From the IMG/VR virus record IMGVR_UViG_2563367158_000003: DNA of 22,812 nucleotides; one strand, 5' to 3'. This stretch comes from a virus. Lineage: Duplodnaviria; Heunggongvirae; Uroviricota; Caudoviricetes. Both the position numbers and the translations under genes were made by a program. The notes under the pieces are model-generated. The model was given only the letters and a program-made list of their open reading frames with translations. It made no database searches and was not told the DNA's origin. Every line of letters starts with the position of its first letter. Within the stretch, counting starts at the first letter, position 1. Shown here in pieces: positions 1-8,628 of the stretch.

Positions 1-1098
1 TTAAATGCGCTGGTCATTTGATATAGGTAAAATGCTTGTAAAGAGTTTTTCGTCATATAGTGCGTACTCAGGTATGTAATCACTGCTTTTACCTGTTTGG
101 AAGATAGAGGGGTCCTTGTCGATTAAAACATATAACTCAATGAGAATATTTCTTAGTCCCCAAAGCATTTGCTTTAGTTGTTTTTCATCATTGAATGAGA
201 TGCTTATGGCTTCCGTATCTGGTTTTGGATGTTCAGGAATTATTGAGAAAAGATGTTCTTGGTATTTATAATCAATTCCAAGTAGTCTGCAAAGTTGAAT
301 TATGTTTGATTCTATGAGTTGTAGGCTAACTAATTGGTTGTCATGATTTTTTTTGTTGGACTTAAGCGATTTGTTTATGTTGTTATAATGATTTGTTGTT
401 TTTCGAATAAAATCTTCTTCGACAGCGGTGCTATAGCCATTATCAATGGAAGATGATTTGAAAATATTTTTATAAAGAGTGTACGGATGAACTACAGATA
501 GTTCAATACTGTCTATATCACTAGTTTCTTTATTTAATCTTGATAATTTAAATGTTGGTAGTGTTTGGAATATATCAGCGAAGCTTTTCAGATGTGAGTA
601 ATATGAATCAGTGGTGTTTTTTTCAATAACAAGATTGATTTGCTTTTGTGTTTTTTCTATTTGGTTCTCTGTTTGTGTGGTTCTATGTATATTGTTGACG
701 ATTGCTGCAAGAGGTACCGAAGAAGCTAAAATAAATAATGGCAATTTAGAGATGTCAAGAAAGTGATTAAAACCGTCTGATGTGAAATTTAAATCGTGGC
801 CTTTCCAAGCCCAGAGGCCATACAAAACAAACATTTTTAACGGTACGATAATAGATGCTATGAATAATGGTTGTTTTAATAGATTTTTCTCATTTAGTTT
901 AAGCCAATTGAAGCAATAGAACATAAGTATCAATCCAAGTATATAAGCTACACTAAAGAAGATAAAAACTCTTGGACGATTAGTGTATATCAATGCTAAG
1001 GCAATTAAGATAGTAATGATTGCGTAGGTAATGATTAATGTGAGCTTTTTTTTCATTCTATTAAACCAAATTATGTAAAGGATTTTTTGTAACAGCAT
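1..1098 (-). CDS. Hypothetical membrane-anchored protein (365 aa; about four N-terminal hydrophobic helices, then a roughly 230 aa soluble domain of unknown function); possible cargo gene
   Basis: Complete ORF with stop at 1-3 on the minus strand. Hydrophobic segments TLIITYAIITILIALALIY, VFIFFSVAYILGLILMFYCF, IASIIVPLKMFVLYGLWAW and LPLFILASSVPLAAIV are visible in the translation. The region is visibly AT-rich relative to the phage backbone. An alternative in-frame ATG at 1054-1056 lies 4 nt after the int stop (1061-1063). No family recognised. Confidence 0.55.
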   Translation of the reverse strand: MLLQKILYIIWFNRMKKKLTLIITYAIITILIALALIYTNRPRVFIFFSVAYILGLILMFYCFNWLKLNEKNLLKQPLFIASIIVPLKMFVLYGLWAWKGHDLNFTSDGFNHFLDISKLPLFILASSVPLAAIVNNIHRTTQTENQIEKTQKQINLVIEKNTTDSYYSHLKSFADIFQTLPTFKLSRLNKETSDIDSIELSVVHPYTLYKNIFKSSSIDNGYSTAVEEDFIRKTTNHYNNINKSLKSNKKNHDNQLVSLQLIESNIIQLCRLLGIDYKYQEHLFSIIPEHPKPDTEAISISFNDEKQLKQMLWGLRNILIELYVLIDKDPSIFQTGKSSDYIPEYALYDEKLFTSILPISNDQRI

Positions 1099-2077
1099 CT
1101 TCTAGATGGTCTGGAGAAAAGTGTGCGTAAACCATCGTCATTTTTATATCGGCATGGCCCAATATTTCTTTAAGGACAAGAATATTCCCGCCATTCATCA
1201 TAAAATGACTGGCGAATGTATGACGCAGCACGTGGGTGCATTGGCCCTCTGGTAGCTCGATGCCTGCTCGCTTTACTGCTCGTTCAAAGGCTTTTCTGCA
1301 CGGTGTGAATAGTTTCCCTCTGTTCTTGGGGAGTTCATCATACAGATTTTGAGATATCGGCACGGTACGATTTTTCTTACCTTTTGTCTTGGTATAGGTG
1401 ATCCGGTATTTTGATAACTGATGGCCCTGCAAGTTTTCTGCTTCACTCCATCGCGCACCAGTAGCCAGGCATATTTTTGCAATCATTAGTAGGCTGGTGT
1501 TTTGAGATTCGGCGCAGGCATTAAGCAGGCGTTTGATTTCGTCCGTGGAAAGAAAAGCCAATTCACCTTCAGCAATTTTGAAGGTTGGAAGCCCTGCCAG
1601 CGGGTTTGGTGCGGACCAGTGCCCTAGTTTTTTCAATGTACCGAACACCGATGACAGGTTACGCTGCTCAAGATTAACTGTGCGAGGTTTAACGGGTGAC
1701 ATGAACGAGCCGTCTTCATTTTGGACCTCCCCCTTTAATCTGGCTTCCCGATATTTTGTGAAATCACCTGCTGTCAGCTCAGAGGCGATGGGATCGCCTA
1801 GACCATTACAGATAATTCTAAGTTTCGCCATCAGGCGTTTGGGGTCTGCGAGTGTTTGACCATATAGGGAATACCACTGCTCAATCACTTCTGATAATCG
1901 CCGCCGATCTTCCTTCTCACCAAGCCATGGCTTTTTGTTTACTTCGTCCATGGTGAAGCTTTCAAATGCAATGGCTTCGCCTTTGGTAGCAAATTGCTTA
2001 CGCACGCGCTTACCATTGCGTCCATTGGGATAGCACTCACACAACCATTTTCCGTTCGGCTGTTTTCTGATGGTCAT
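1061..2077 (-). CDS. int: Phage tyrosine integrase (P2/186 Int family)
   Basis: 338 aa; ATG at 2075-2077 (minus strand). C-terminal catalytic region with R...H-x-x-R...Y (HVLRHTFASHF ... MTMVYAHF) typical of tyrosine recombinases; sits directly downstream of the repressor as in the 186 cI-int operon. Confidence 0.93.
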   Translation of the reverse strand: MTIRKQPNGKWLCECYPNGRNGKRVRKQFATKGEAIAFESFTMDEVNKKPWLGEKEDRRRLSEVIEQWYSLYGQTLADPKRLMAKLRIICNGLGDPIASELTAGDFTKYREARLKGEVQNEDGSFMSPVKPRTVNLEQRNLSSVFGTLKKLGHWSAPNPLAGLPTFKIAEGELAFLSTDEIKRLLNACAESQNTSLLMIAKICLATGARWSEAENLQGHQLSKYRITYTKTKGKKNRTVPISQNLYDELPKNRGKLFTPCRKAFERAVKRAGIELPEGQCTHVLRHTFASHFMMNGGNILVLKEILGHADIKMTMVYAHFSPDHLEDAVTKNPLHNLV

Positions 2078-2080
2078 AAG

Positions 2081-2713
2081 TTAGAGGTTCTTGATTACTT
2101 TGACTGCACGTCCTACGACTTCCACATCATCTACAGAACATTCAAATGAAGTGTCATCTTGGTTAACTACTATTTTGTTTCCGGGTATGCGCGCAATTTT
2201 GACGATGCTTTTAACTCCGTCCATATCGACTAACCAGAAGCCATTACTGACTTGTTTAACGGACGTATCCACTACAAAGCTATTATTAGCTGTTTTAACA
2301 AATAAAGCGTTGGATGAGTCACCATCGAGCAGGCTGCTATCAAGAAGAATTTCATCACTTGCCTGCAGTTCGCCGTTCTTCAGTTCAACACGTTTGATGC
2401 TAGGAGCAACGATCTTAGAAAGTGGTCTTACAGTGACGGGAGGTTCATTTTTGAGATTTGTATCTTCGTTCTCACACGCATACATATCTCCTTGACCAGT
2501 AGCCAGCCATAGAAGGGAAACTCCTGTTTCAAGGGCACATTGAATTACCCATTCGGCAGGAAAGCTATCCCTTAAGTATCTGTTAGCCATAGTGCTTTTG
2601 GATACCTCCAGATGTTCGCAGAGCTGCTGTCGTGAGCTGAAGTTGTAAGCCTTAATAAGCCTGTTAATTGCATCGCGCCCACCACTATCATTTCCCGCCT
2701 TGATCAAACTCAT
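2081..2713 (-). CDS. cI: CI-type immunity repressor (186 CI-like, N-terminal HTH)
   Basis: ORF track starts at a TTG (2719); the first ATG is at 2711-2713, giving about 210 aa. Helix-turn-helix-like segment near the N-terminus; position between int and the divergent early operon. Stop is 3 nt before the int start. Confidence 0.8.
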   Translation of the reverse strand: MSLIKAGNDSGGRDAINRLIKAYNFSSRQQLCEHLEVSKSTMANRYLRDSFPAEWVIQCALETGVSLLWLATGQGDMYACENEDTNLKNEPPVTVRPLSKIVAPSIKRVELKNGELQASDEILLDSSLLDGDSSNALFVKTANNSFVVDTSVKQVSNGFWLVDMDGVKSIVKIARIPGNKIVVNQDDTSFECSVDDVEVVGRAVKVIKNL

Positions 2714-2724
2714 AATCAAACCCC

Positions 2725-5509: not shown

Positions 5510-7920
5510 GTCATGCCGATATGAACAACTGCTGCGGCTTTAACGAGGCTGCCGCAGCATTCTCATGGAACAGCCCGAAAAAGGCCATTAACCCTTATCT
5601 GGACCCGGCGGAAGTTGCGCCGGTTTCTGCGCTTTCAAACCTGATCACTCTGTACGCTGCCGATAACGAGCAGGAACAACTGCGCCGCGAGGCACTGAGT
5701 GATCAGGTCTGGGAGCATTATTTCTTTAATGAATCCCGTGATCCTGTCCAGCGCGAAATGGAGCAGGATAAGCTAATTAGCCGGGCAAAGCTGGCGCATG
5801 AGCAGCAGCGTTTTAATCCGGACATGGTCATTCTGGCGGATGTCAACGCCCAGCCTTCCCATATCAGCAAGCCGCTGATGCAACGTATTAAATACTTCAG
5901 CAACCTGGGCAGGCCAAAGGCTTATTCCCGCTATTTGCGTGAGACGATTAAGCCATGCTTGGAACGACTGGAGCATGTACGCGACAGCCAGCTATCTGCA
6001 TCTTTTCGTTTTATGGCAAGCCATGAAGGGCTGGACGGTCTGCTGATCCTGCCTGAAATGAGTCAGGATCAGGTGAAACGCCTGTCCACCCTTGTCGCTG
6101 CGCATATGAGCATGTGTCTTGATGCCGCTTGTGGTGATTTGTACGCCTCCGATGATGTTAAGCCGGAAGAAATCCGCAAGACATGGGAAAAGGTGGCAGC
6201 AGAAACCCTGCGACTGGATGTCATACCGCCTGCGTTTGAGCAACTCCGCCGGAAAAGAAACCGCCGCAAACCTGTGCCCTATGAACTCATTCCGGGTTCG
6301 CTGGCGCGTATGCTGTGCGCCGACTGGTGGTATCGGAAATTATGGAAGATGCGTTGCGAATGGCGGGAAGAGCAGTTGCGTGCTGTCTGTCTGGTCAGCA
6401 AAAAAGCATCTCCCTATGTCAGCTATGAAGCCGTGATGCATAAACGTGAGCAGCGCCGTAAGTCGCTGGAGTTTTTCCGTTCTCATGAACTGGTGAACGA
6501 AGACGGCGACATGCTGGACATGGAGGATGTGGTAAACGCCAGCAGCAGCAACCCGGCGCATCGCCGCAATGAGATGATGGCCTGCGTTAAAGGTCTGGAG
6601 CTTATCGCGGAAATGCGTGGTGACTGCGCCGTTTTCTACACCATCACCTGTCCGTCACGTTTCCATTCCACGCTAAATAACGGCAGGCCAAACCCGACCT
6701 GGACCAACGCGACAGTAAGACAAAGCAGCGATTATCTGGTCGGCATGTTTGCTGCATTTCGTAAGGCTATGCACAAAGCCGGATTGCGCTGGTATGGCGT
6801 GCGGGTGGCTGAGCCGCATCATGACGGTACAGTTCACTGGCACCTGTTGTGTTTTATGCGCAAAAAAGATCGCCGCGCCATTACTGCTTTGTTGTGTAAG
6901 TTTGCCATTCGTGAAGACCGCGAGGAGCTGGGGAATAACACGGGACCACGCTTTAAGTCTGAGTTGATTAACCCGCGCAAAGGAACGCCGACAAGCTACA
7001 TCGCGAAATATATCAGCAAGAACATTGACGGGCGTGGTCTGGCTGGCGAGATCAGCAAGGAAACGGGTAAATCTCTGCGTGATAACGCTGAATACGTGAA
7101 TGCCTGGGCGTCTTTGCATCGTGTTCAGCAATTCCGCTTCTTTGGCATTCCGGGGCGTCAGGCTTACCGTGAACTGCGATTGCTGGCTGGTCAGGCGGCA
7201 AGGCAGCAGGGTGACAAAAAAGCAGGTGTGCCGGTACTGGATAACCCGCGCCTTGATGCCATTCTGGCTGCTGCTGATGCTGGTTGTTTTGCCACCTATA
7301 TCATGAAGCAGGGAGGTGTACTGGTTCCCCGTAAATATCACCTCATCAGAACTGCTTATGAAATTAACGAAGAGCCGACCGCCTATGGCGATCACGGTAT
7401 TCGTATTTATGGCATCTGGTCACCCATTGCAGAGGGCAAGATCTGCACTCATGCAGTGAAGTGGAAAATGGTTCGTAAGGCCGTTGACGTTCAGGAGGCG
7501 GCAGCCGACCAGGGCGCTTGCGCCCCTTGGACTCGTGGCAATAACTGTCCCCTTGCTGAAAATTTGAACCAACAAGGGAAAGACAAATCAGCTGATGGGG
7601 ATACCAGGACGGACATTACCCGCATGGATGACAAGGAGTTGCACGATTACCTGCACAGTATGAGCAAAAAAGAGCGCCGGGAACTGGCTGCAAGGTTACG
7701 CCTGGTGAAACCGAAATGGCGTAAAGACTACAAACAGCGAATTACAGACCATCAGCGACAGCAGCTCGTCTATGAACTGAAGTCCAGAGGATTTGATGGC
7801 AGCGAGAAAGAGGTCGATTTACTCCTTCGCGGCGGCAGTATTCCGTCAGGAGCAGGCCTGCGTATCTTCTATCGGAACCAGCGTTTGCAGGAAGATGATA
7901 AGTGGCGAAACCTGTATTAA
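5506..7920 (+). CDS. A: Replication initiation protein A (rolling-circle nicking endonuclease, P2 gpA family)
   Basis: 804 aa; HUH-like motif (GTVHWHLL) and paired active-site tyrosines (YIAKYISK); follows the early operon as in P2/186. Start overlaps the dam stop (ATGA). Confidence 0.92.
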
Positions 7921-8014
7921 TTACGCGGGTTAACAATTCGTGCTCTTAATAATACCAGGCATATCAGGCTGATGAACGTAAAAAAACGTTTTACATCAGT
8001 AAGATTATTATATA

Positions 8015-8030
8015 CTGTAAATATAAACAG
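8015..8030 (+). promoter_or_regulatory. LexA (SOS) box CTGTAAATATAAACAG within a promoter-like AT-rich region upstream of the tum-like ORF
   Basis: Matches the CTGT-N8-ACAG LexA consensus exactly, with an AT-rich spacer; lies 44 nt upstream of the ATG at 8074. Phage 186 tum is known to be LexA-controlled. Confidence 0.7.
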
Positions 8031-8073
8031 TGGTTATACATACAGTATTTCTTGTGGTGTCATAGGAGGAAAG

Positions 8074-8262
8074 ATGCAGGACTATTTTTTGGAGTCTTTG
8101 AAGCTCCAGCGCATTGATTTTTTTCTTAAACTTGTAGCGGCTAGTGAGTGTAGTGATGAAGAGAAGGGGCTGGCTTTGCAGTGGGTTTCTGAACTGACAG
8201 ATGAACTCATGGCAAAAATCAGAACCCACGAATACAACCGCTCAATGGATGTCATCAGCTGA
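8074..8262 (+). CDS. Small SOS-operon protein (62 aa), possible N-terminal (antirepressor) part of a Tum-like protein
   Basis: ATG at 8074 with GGAGG upstream, directly downstream of the LexA box; the track's longer ORF from 7972 would include the operator, so the shorter start is preferred. Confidence 0.45.
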   Translation: MQDYFLESLKLQRIDFFLKLVAASECSDEEKGLALQWVSELTDELMAKIRTHEYNRSMDVIS

Positions 8263-8272
8263 GGTGACTTTT

Positions 8273-8506
8273 ATGCGCATTGAAATAATGATCGATAAAG
8301 AGCAGAAGATTAGCCAGTCTACCCTGGACGCCCTTGAATCCGAGCTTTACCGCAATCTGCGCCCCCTATATCCAAAAACGGTAATTCGCATCCGCAAAGG
8401 TAGCTCTAACGGTGTGGAACTGACCGGACTGCAACTGGACGAAGAAAGGAAGCAAGTGATGAAAATTATGCAGAAGGTGTGGGAAGACGACAGCTGGCTG
8501 CATTAA
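8273..8506 (+). CDS. DinI-family protein (77 aa)
   Basis: ATG at 8273 (MRIEIMIDKEQ...); length and sequence pattern resemble DinI (MRIEV...start, acidic C-terminus ending W-x-x-DD-W); second gene of the LexA-boxed operon. Confidence 0.75.
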   Translation: MRIEIMIDKEQKISQSTLDALESELYRNLRPLYPKTVIRIRKGSSNGVELTGLQLDEERKQVMKIMQKVWEDDSWLH

Positions 8507-8628
8507 GAAACGTTGCTGGCGTCTGAACTTGCTTCTGGCGTCAGCAAGGTTGAACAACGAGCTGTGCGAGGCGTTAGTTGATATAGTATCAATATATAAA
8601 AGGTTTCTCGAAGTTTTAAGGTAAGGTT

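Follow-up and report, generated by a model that had tools for sequence, protein, structure and literature searches.

A hypervariable, AT-rich gene for a predicted membrane protein as one-gene cargo between int and the attP arm of 186-like prophages

The described systems closest to the gene considered here are membrane proteins encoded in the lysogeny operons of temperate phages and the cargo genes of P2-like phages. RexB, of the RexAB system of phage lambda, is a multi-pass inner-membrane protein whose gene shares a transcript with that of the immunity repressor in the lysogen. Sie2009 of lactococcal phages, Ltp of the S. thermophilus phage TP-J34, and Glo of the P2-like Vibrio phage K139 are membrane-associated, are encoded beside int and the repressor, and are expressed in the lysogen. 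In P2-like genomes cargo hotspots include old/tin between gpA and the portal gene, Z/fun, and the int-att interval, and according to a 2026 survey of P2-like prophages the int-att interval is a minor defence hotspot, accounting for 3% of the recognisable P2 systems (PMC13586616). In phage 186, leftward lysogenic transcripts pass through int, and an int-lacZ fusion serves as the reporter of leftward transcription (PMC7708051). The attP of phage 186 contains core, arm, IHF and Apl sites (PMC7498355).

The gene described here lies at the left end of a 22,812-nucleotide stretch of prophage DNA (IMG/VR record IMGVR_UViG_2563367158_000003; hereafter the window), directly after cI and int. Its likeness to the P2-like hotspots and to the membrane proteins of lysogeny operons is one of position and architecture only. 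It shares with the cargo of the P2-like hotspots its accessory nature, its AT-richness and variability, and a fixed place in an otherwise conserved Peduoviridae genome, but its product matches none of the recognised P2-hotspot systems. It also forms a strict single-gene cassette that runs from the int stop codon to the first arm repeat, a detail that was not found in the available part of the survey (PMC13586616). Like RexB, the product is a multi-pass membrane protein by prediction and is encoded downstream of a repressor gene with which it would be co-transcribed, and its four-transmembrane module joined to a cytoplasmic domain resembles a fused effector and sensor. However, no sequence or profile similarity to RexB was found in any library searched, and there is no separate RexA-like partner at this locus. 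Sie2009, Ltp, and Glo are far smaller proteins of unrelated sequence, some of them outward-facing lipoproteins, whereas the large domain of the window protein is predicted to be cytoplasmic.

The full open frame (1-1098, minus strand) would encode 365 aa, and its stop codon is formed by the first three bases of the window. A second in-frame ATG gives a protein of 351 aa that begins 4 nt past the int stop codon (1061-1063), and the letters at the junction are TTGGTTTAATAGAATGAAAAAAAAG. Translation begins at this second ATG (MKKK) in the PGAP/RefSeq annotation of a 99.7% identical E. coli copy and in every aligned homologue, and therefore the gene was taken as positions 1-1056. The 365-aa form, which overlaps the 3' end of int and is not conserved in homologues, was rejected. 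An open frame of 366 codons would arise by chance with a probability of about 1e-13 (our own arithmetic, for 32% GC and a stop probability of ~0.076 per codon). The ORF is a genuine gene, since a profile search of 1.84 billion cluster representatives (family clusters counted at 50% identity) gathered a family of 957 representatives at E ≤ 1e-3, and 171 at E ≤ 1e-30. The plus-strand genes that follow cI (apl/cox-like, a CP76-type cII, Dam methylase, gpA, and portal) are those of a 186-like Peduoviridae prophage.

The composition of the gene sets it apart from the rest of the window. GC content was 0.326 in positions 1-500 and 0.312 in positions 501-1000, versus at least 0.39 in all other 500-nt blocks. 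The ORF had a GC content of 0.317 and a GC3 of 0.295, while int had a GC content of 0.46. The original prediction had described a 365-aa frame on the strand of cI and int, starting within int or 4 nt after its stop, and had called this the most AT-rich stretch of the window and a foreign gene tightly joined to int. The open frame, the base composition, and the 4-nt gap all agree with this description. Coordinates of the gene, its neighbours, and the parts of its product are collected in Table 1.

Table 1. Features of the window at and around the membrane-protein gene. Residue and transmembrane (TM) numbers refer to the 351-aa form.
Feature	Position	Strand	Basis or remark
Membrane-protein CDS, 351 aa	1..1056	-	Stop codon at 1-3; start ATG at 1054-1056 as in homologues and PGAP; PHROG match
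int junction	1057..1098	-	4-nt spacer 1057-1060 after the int stop; upstream in-frame ATG 1096-1098
int, 186-type tyrosine integrase, upstream operon partner	1061..2077	-	Pfam Int_N and Phage_integrase
cI, CI repressor, first gene of the leftward lysogenic operon	2081..2719	-	Pfam Phage_CI_repr and Phage_CI_C
Predicted TM1, residues 5-24	985..1044	-	Hydropathy; AlphaFold2 helix 2-24
Predicted TM2, residues 28-48	913..975	-	Hydropathy; AlphaFold2
Predicted TM3, residues 63-84, within conserved core	805..870	-	Hydropathy; AlphaFold2; alignment
Predicted TM4, residues 105-123; conserved K104, P106, P115, N122	688..744	-	Hydropathy; AlphaFold2; alignment
Juxtamembrane signature NNIHRTxQTExQI (residues 121-133) and stalk helix to residue 163	568..696	-	
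Variable C-terminal alpha/beta domain, residues 164-351, predicted cytoplasmic	4..567	-	

About four N-terminal transmembrane helices and a soluble C-terminal part with no recognised motif had been expected, and this was the outcome of hydropathy analysis, of structure prediction, and of searches of Pfam, NCBIfam, and PADLOC, none of which named the C-terminal part. The AlphaFold2 model, a check that had been proposed along with the original prediction, had a mean pLDDT of 80.5. All four hydrophobic segments were modelled as helices, and the fourth runs on unbroken as a stalk to residue 163, after which there is a mixed alpha/beta domain of roughly 190 aa. By the positive-inside rule alone, the N terminus (MKKK), the TM2-TM3 loop, and the C-terminal domain would all be cytoplasmic. 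The TM1-TM2 loop (TNRPR) is also positively charged, which is weakly against this N-in/C-in topology. The predicted periplasmic loops are short.

The one positive family match was to the PHROG phrog_17460 (E = 1.4e-48, residues 46-275), a direct profile match to a group that carries no annotated function and so names the family only. The 351-aa protein had no Pfam match at E ≤ 1, no NCBIfam match, and matched 0 families at E ≤ 10 in PADLOC-DB 2.0.0. When 84 diverse members of the family were compared with Pfam and PADLOC, there were only stray, non-significant matches, including KwaA, 2TM, and Longin_2; the PADLOC matches among these members all had E > 4e-5, and none was lower. KwaA, of the Kiwa system (KwaAB), has the same four-transmembrane N-terminal architecture, but its matches came from single distant family members at E values of 0.004-0.009, which are not significant over 84 x 5027 comparisons. 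The window protein itself did not match KwaA, and its slot holds one gene, with no KwaB-like (DUF4868) partner. A profile search of PDB sequences returned only low-complexity coiled-coil noise, and a structural search gave no convincing fold match for either the whole protein or the C-terminal domain. The C-terminal domain was also used alone as a query, in search of other domain architectures, and found only 2 close relatives, which was uninformative. A literature search on the protein accession found nothing.

A word-indexed search found 52 close homologues, all from Enterobacterales and all unnamed. Alignment of the 84 diverse members placed the conserved region from the TM2-TM3 loop through TM3 and TM4 and into the first part of the stalk. 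Five residues were invariant (L59, Q62, P106, H124, and Q128), and nearly invariant were F65, P72, G80, W84, G95, F99, L110, R125, T126, Q132, and I133, with K146, N147, D150, H155, K157, and Y195 from the stalk onward. Many members of the family do not have TM1, or have neither TM1 nor TM2. Judged by these searches and alignments, the family is large, uncharacterised, and very fast-diverging.

The window stops short of the attachment site, and the leftward search for it that had been proposed was carried out in related genomes, where the core is the 3' end of ssrA and lies distal to the ORF. E. coli BE2-5 (L002) carries a copy of the gene that is 82% identical, and its element is flanked by a perfect 49-nt direct repeat of the ssrA 3' end (L002 7826-7874 and 12437-12485). 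The right repeat is part of the real tmRNA gene, and the left repeat is 114 nt beyond the ORF stop (7988). E. coli ECL27977 (L001) is 99.7% identical to the window across 2.1 kb; its ssrA core is ~112 nt past the ORF stop, and the letters beside the stop are TAA-TGGCGACAAAGTGGCGGCA. Klebsiella loci and Kp4865-2 had the order int, family gene, arm repeats, core, and the core was distal to the gene across L003-5, L008-9, L183, and 16 aligned loci.

This last alignment covered the 135 nt that precede the core in 16 loci with different slot contents. An arm of ~112 nt was conserved in all 16, starting with two TGGCGRCA repeats 11 bp apart, and homology stopped directly on the int side of these repeats. 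The stop codon of the window ORF abuts the first repeat, just left of position 1. Tandem copies of TGGCGRCA were also found on the ogr-side arm (L002 12373-12396), in addition to those on the int side (L002 7968-7991, and within L001 7889-8000). Because they occur in tandem on both att arms, as expected of such sites, the repeats are candidate arm-type sites for Int.

In all of the loci examined the conserved arm and the core come after the ORF, which places the gene within the 186-like prophage, with int on one side of it and the attP arm on the other. The neighbouring island at ssrA starts only past the att core. Among the prophage-bearing loci examined, the ORF never occurred at ssrA unless the integrase was present too, and where the slot was empty int lay directly at att. 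The original prediction had allowed that the ORF might lie outside the prophage, in a host island, and the core ~112 nt beyond the ORF in the 99.7% identical twin and in related loci removes this caveat. Its expectation that no att core would separate int from the ORF held, and in none of the loci examined was the core found between them.

The contents of the interval between int and att were surveyed by searching IMG/VR with the window integrase, which gave 80 loci with integrases 90-100% identical to it. For every locus a script determined where int stops, which ORF comes first after it, and where the core lies; the products of these ORFs were then grouped by clustering. The membrane-protein family occupied the slot in 19 of the 80 loci (hmmsearch E values of 1e-77 to 1e-96). 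A protein of ~400 aa with weak similarity to the RES domain was found in 23 loci, a protein of ~510 aa with no annotation in eight, and a transmembrane protein of 218-222 aa, also with no annotation, in two. Two other loci had a dCTP-deaminase-like protein with a C-terminal transmembrane segment (Pfam DCD), and one had a SMEK-domain protein (PADLOC Aga_REase-PNTD, E = 2.7e-30). The slot was empty in ~16 loci, with the core 118 nt after the int stop. For the rest, the contig ended first or there was nothing scorable.

In all, at least seven alternative occupants and the empty state were found beside integrases that were 90-100% identical, and the ~112-nt arm was common to occupied and empty states. 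Defence-type domains were present in only 3 of the ~64 occupied slots, and the other occupants were mostly unknowns. Two isolated phages, RE-2010 and Cartapus, carry the ~400-aa gene in the slot rather than the membrane-protein family; the layout in Cartapus is ogr, a 160-aa gene, the attP region, cargo, int. From the alignments, the slot is a site for a single-gene cassette, with the int stop at one end and the first arm repeat at the other. These two boundaries add detail to a known kind of feature, and the finding as a whole would not greatly surprise a specialist.

The Klebsiella aerogenes alleles (L003-L005 7184-8377) had a second slot gene, of 397 aa, between the family gene and the att core. 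Its product had no Pfam or PADLOC match and may be a partner protein.

The association of the gene with int was examined starting from the family profile, which found 57 loci in IMG/VR. A 186-type int was directly upstream on the same strand in 56 of them, and these integrases were 66-100% identical to that of the window. The gap from int to the gene was between -43 and +8 nt in 53 of the 56, and many of the loci had 4-nt ATGA overlaps. The same arrangement of int and family gene was repeated in Cedecea, Kosakonia, and Citrobacter genomes. Divergence was compared over 907 pairs of loci with integrases at least 88% identical. Median identity was 92.6% for int and 29% for the whole family protein; within the latter it was 50% for core residues 51-160, 21% for TM1-2, and 19% for the C-terminal domain. 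The GC content was 0.29-0.36 across all of the family genes compared. The integrase is thus conserved, whereas the gene beside it is hypervariable and uniformly AT-rich.

The E. coli prophages that carry the gene are decayed (L001 8001-18103; L002 7875-12436), with a truncated cII, an IS66 fragment, and most of the morphogenesis genes gone, and the one in BE2-5 is reduced to 4.6 kb. The membrane-protein gene, int, and cI are intact in these decayed prophages. Members of the family were also found in other settings. In Dickeya there was one in an ICE-like island beside SNF2, SEC-C, and UvrD-type genes, in Pseudomonas one followed umuDC, and in Xenorhabdus one was at a prophage remnant. In Budvicia aquatica (L100 7374-8885) a member is paired with a DUF4875 gene of the same orientation, with rpoD on one side of the pair and the gpD end of a P2-like prophage on the other. 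Vinavirales elements of Vibrio have a homologue directly after a LexA-like repressor, on the same strand, at the element end, and it has in common with the rest of the family the motif GFNNFL..K.PL..LA.S.P......HR..QT..QI. The homologue in Vibrio phage 10N.286.52.F6_PE001 (L014 4317-5996) has two transmembrane segments and follows a LexA/S24-type repressor in an autolykivirus-like element of ~15 kb. A scan of genome contigs from an exact-pattern seed gave 8 loci only. A circular 37-kb 'plasmid', CP019275.1 (L013, L182), was considered as an excised form of the prophage and discarded: it carries recN, bamE, rnfH, nadK, and many frameshifts, and is probably a misassembled piece of chromosome.

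There was no terminator-like site on the minus strand between int and the ORF and no convincing promoter immediately upstream of the ORF, so the gene would be carried on the cI-int transcript. Because leftward transcripts of phage 186 read through int, the leftward lysogenic promoters are likely to serve the ORF as well as cI and int, and so to drive its expression in the lysogen. No Shine-Dalgarno sequence was apparent by eye before the ATG of the ORF. The 4-nt gap at this locus and the ATGA overlaps of other alleles suggest that the ORF is probably translationally coupled to int. An antisense promoter-like site (TTGAGA-18-TATAAT, 11 of 12 matches) is located within the ORF at 243-272 on the plus strand; it may simply reflect AT-rich DNA, since promoter-like sites in the region were fewer than in shuffled sequences.

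Taken from sequence comparison, this is a dispensable, exchangeable, phage-carried gene for a membrane protein. An anti-phage role of some kind, such as the superinfection exclusion or abortive infection suggested in the original prediction, is probable, a view that rests on context: it is favoured because the int-att interval is a minor defence hotspot, the alternative occupants of the slot include conflict-type proteins, the family is extremely diversified, and a homologue is linked to a repressor in Vibrio. Against it, there is no defence HMM or fold match, and the alternative slot genes are mostly unknowns. The charged TM1-TM2 loop and the lack of a visible Shine-Dalgarno sequence also weigh against this explanation, and conflict or surface functions of other kinds could likewise account for hypervariability and AT-richness.

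The best explanation, to which we give about an even chance, is a phage-borne accessory cassette gene whose product would be made in the lysogen as an anti-phage protein with a cytoplasmic sensor and a membrane effector. The gene would fill the one-gene cargo slot between the int stop and the attP arm sites of an ssrA-integrating 186-like prophage and would encode an inner-membrane protein with four transmembrane helices and both termini predicted to be in the cytoplasm. Transcribed from the leftward lysogenic promoters, the gene would give the lysogen a low, constitutive supply of this protein and with it protection against other phages. The variable cytoplasmic domain may recognise a component of the incoming phage, and the conserved membrane core may then permeabilise the inner membrane (abortive infection) or block genome entry. 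A variable part in the cytoplasm and a conserved part in the membrane suit a sensor coupled to a membrane effector, of the abortive-infection type. A broader proposal is more tentative, and we hold it to be possible but on balance doubtful: that the whole family is an unrecognised single-gene, membrane-anchored anti-phage system, with a variable sensor and a TM3-TM4/HRTxQ effector, which would have been recruited independently into the lysogeny operons of 186-like Peduoviridae and Vibrio Vinavirales and exchanged as a cassette.

Classical superinfection exclusion without cell death, in which ejection or translocation of the genome is blocked at the inner membrane as by P22 SieA, T4 Imm, or HK97 gp15, differs from the sensor-effector explanation in mechanism only. 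Membrane-bound Sie proteins are often encoded in lysogeny modules, and a predicted inner-membrane protein within a lysogeny operon, with a homologue after the repressor in unrelated Vibrio elements, would be in keeping with such a role. However, in an entry blocker one would expect the periplasmic or membrane parts to be the variable ones, whereas here most of the protein, like its hypervariable part, is predicted to lie in the cytoplasm and the periplasmic loops are short. That the window protein is without any Pfam match at E ≤ 1, including to exclusion families such as Imm_superinfect or SieB if these are in the copy searched, also counts against it. We regard non-lethal exclusion as unlikely, though it is the chief rival in mechanism.

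A lysogenic-conversion factor unrelated to phages is improbable; it might confer immunity to a membrane-acting bacteriocin or to a contact-dependent toxin, act in the envelope or in stress, or help the host to colonise. It would account for a membrane protein with no fold match, for a gene kept intact in decayed prophages, and for members in non-phage islands (the ICE-like island of Dickeya, and next to umuDC in Pseudomonas). It does not sit well with slot alternatives that include conflict-type domains (dCTP deaminase-like, SMEK, and RES-like) or with extreme diversification beside a conserved int, and the slot of the window has no toxin partner gene.

The tight coupling of the gene to int and its position against the attP arm sites could point to a role in the phage's own cycle, such as modulation of integration or excision, membrane anchoring, or lysis timing. 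This is contradicted by the empty and alternative states of the slot: near-identical integrases have an empty slot or unrelated genes, and RE-2010 and Cartapus are without the gene. Homologues also occur without any 186-type int, and we consider such a role very improbable. That the ORF is a host or neighbouring-island gene outside the prophage, as might be thought from a window that stops with the ORF and does not include an att site and from an ssrA locus that carries tandem islands, has a negligible chance and is refuted by the core and conserved arm, which come after the ORF in all of the loci examined.

If the defence reading is true, this would be a compact one-gene family of ~1 kb, widespread in prophages of Enterobacterales and beyond, that current annotation tools have missed. 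It is a sizeable and directly testable candidate family with many natural variants, and the many natural allele swaps beside near-identical integrases would be ideal for tracing specificity to the variable domain. Irrespective of function, the present comparisons define a precise one-gene cassette site in the int-attP interval of 186-like phages that target ssrA. This offers a simple rule for mining further cargo, which starts 4 nt from the int stop and has a stop codon abutting the arm repeats, and prophage-boundary calls that end at int would miss such cargo.

Twelve of the 80 IMG/VR prophage contigs (L015, L017, L018, L020, and others) end exactly at the stop codon of the membrane-protein gene, as the window does, which indicates that automated prophage boundaries drop the att arm and the core.

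Other cargo positions were also seen. Window positions 7920-10490 are the classical P2 gpA-portal hotspot, with a GC content of 0.39-0.46. Its genes encode a DinI-like protein (8201-8506), a 239-aa HNH-domain protein (8629-9348), and a 223-aa protein with no match (9769-10440), and none of them matched PADLOC. The att flank on the ogr side is a cargo position as well (L002 11835-12317; L012 2001-2483; L009 8656-12422). The 160-aa ogr-side protein of the E. coli loci and Cartapus had a weak BRCT match and a weak match to PADLOC PDC-S48. In a Klebsiella locus, a HamA and helicase pair (Hachiman-like) was encoded beside the ogr of a second P2-like prophage.
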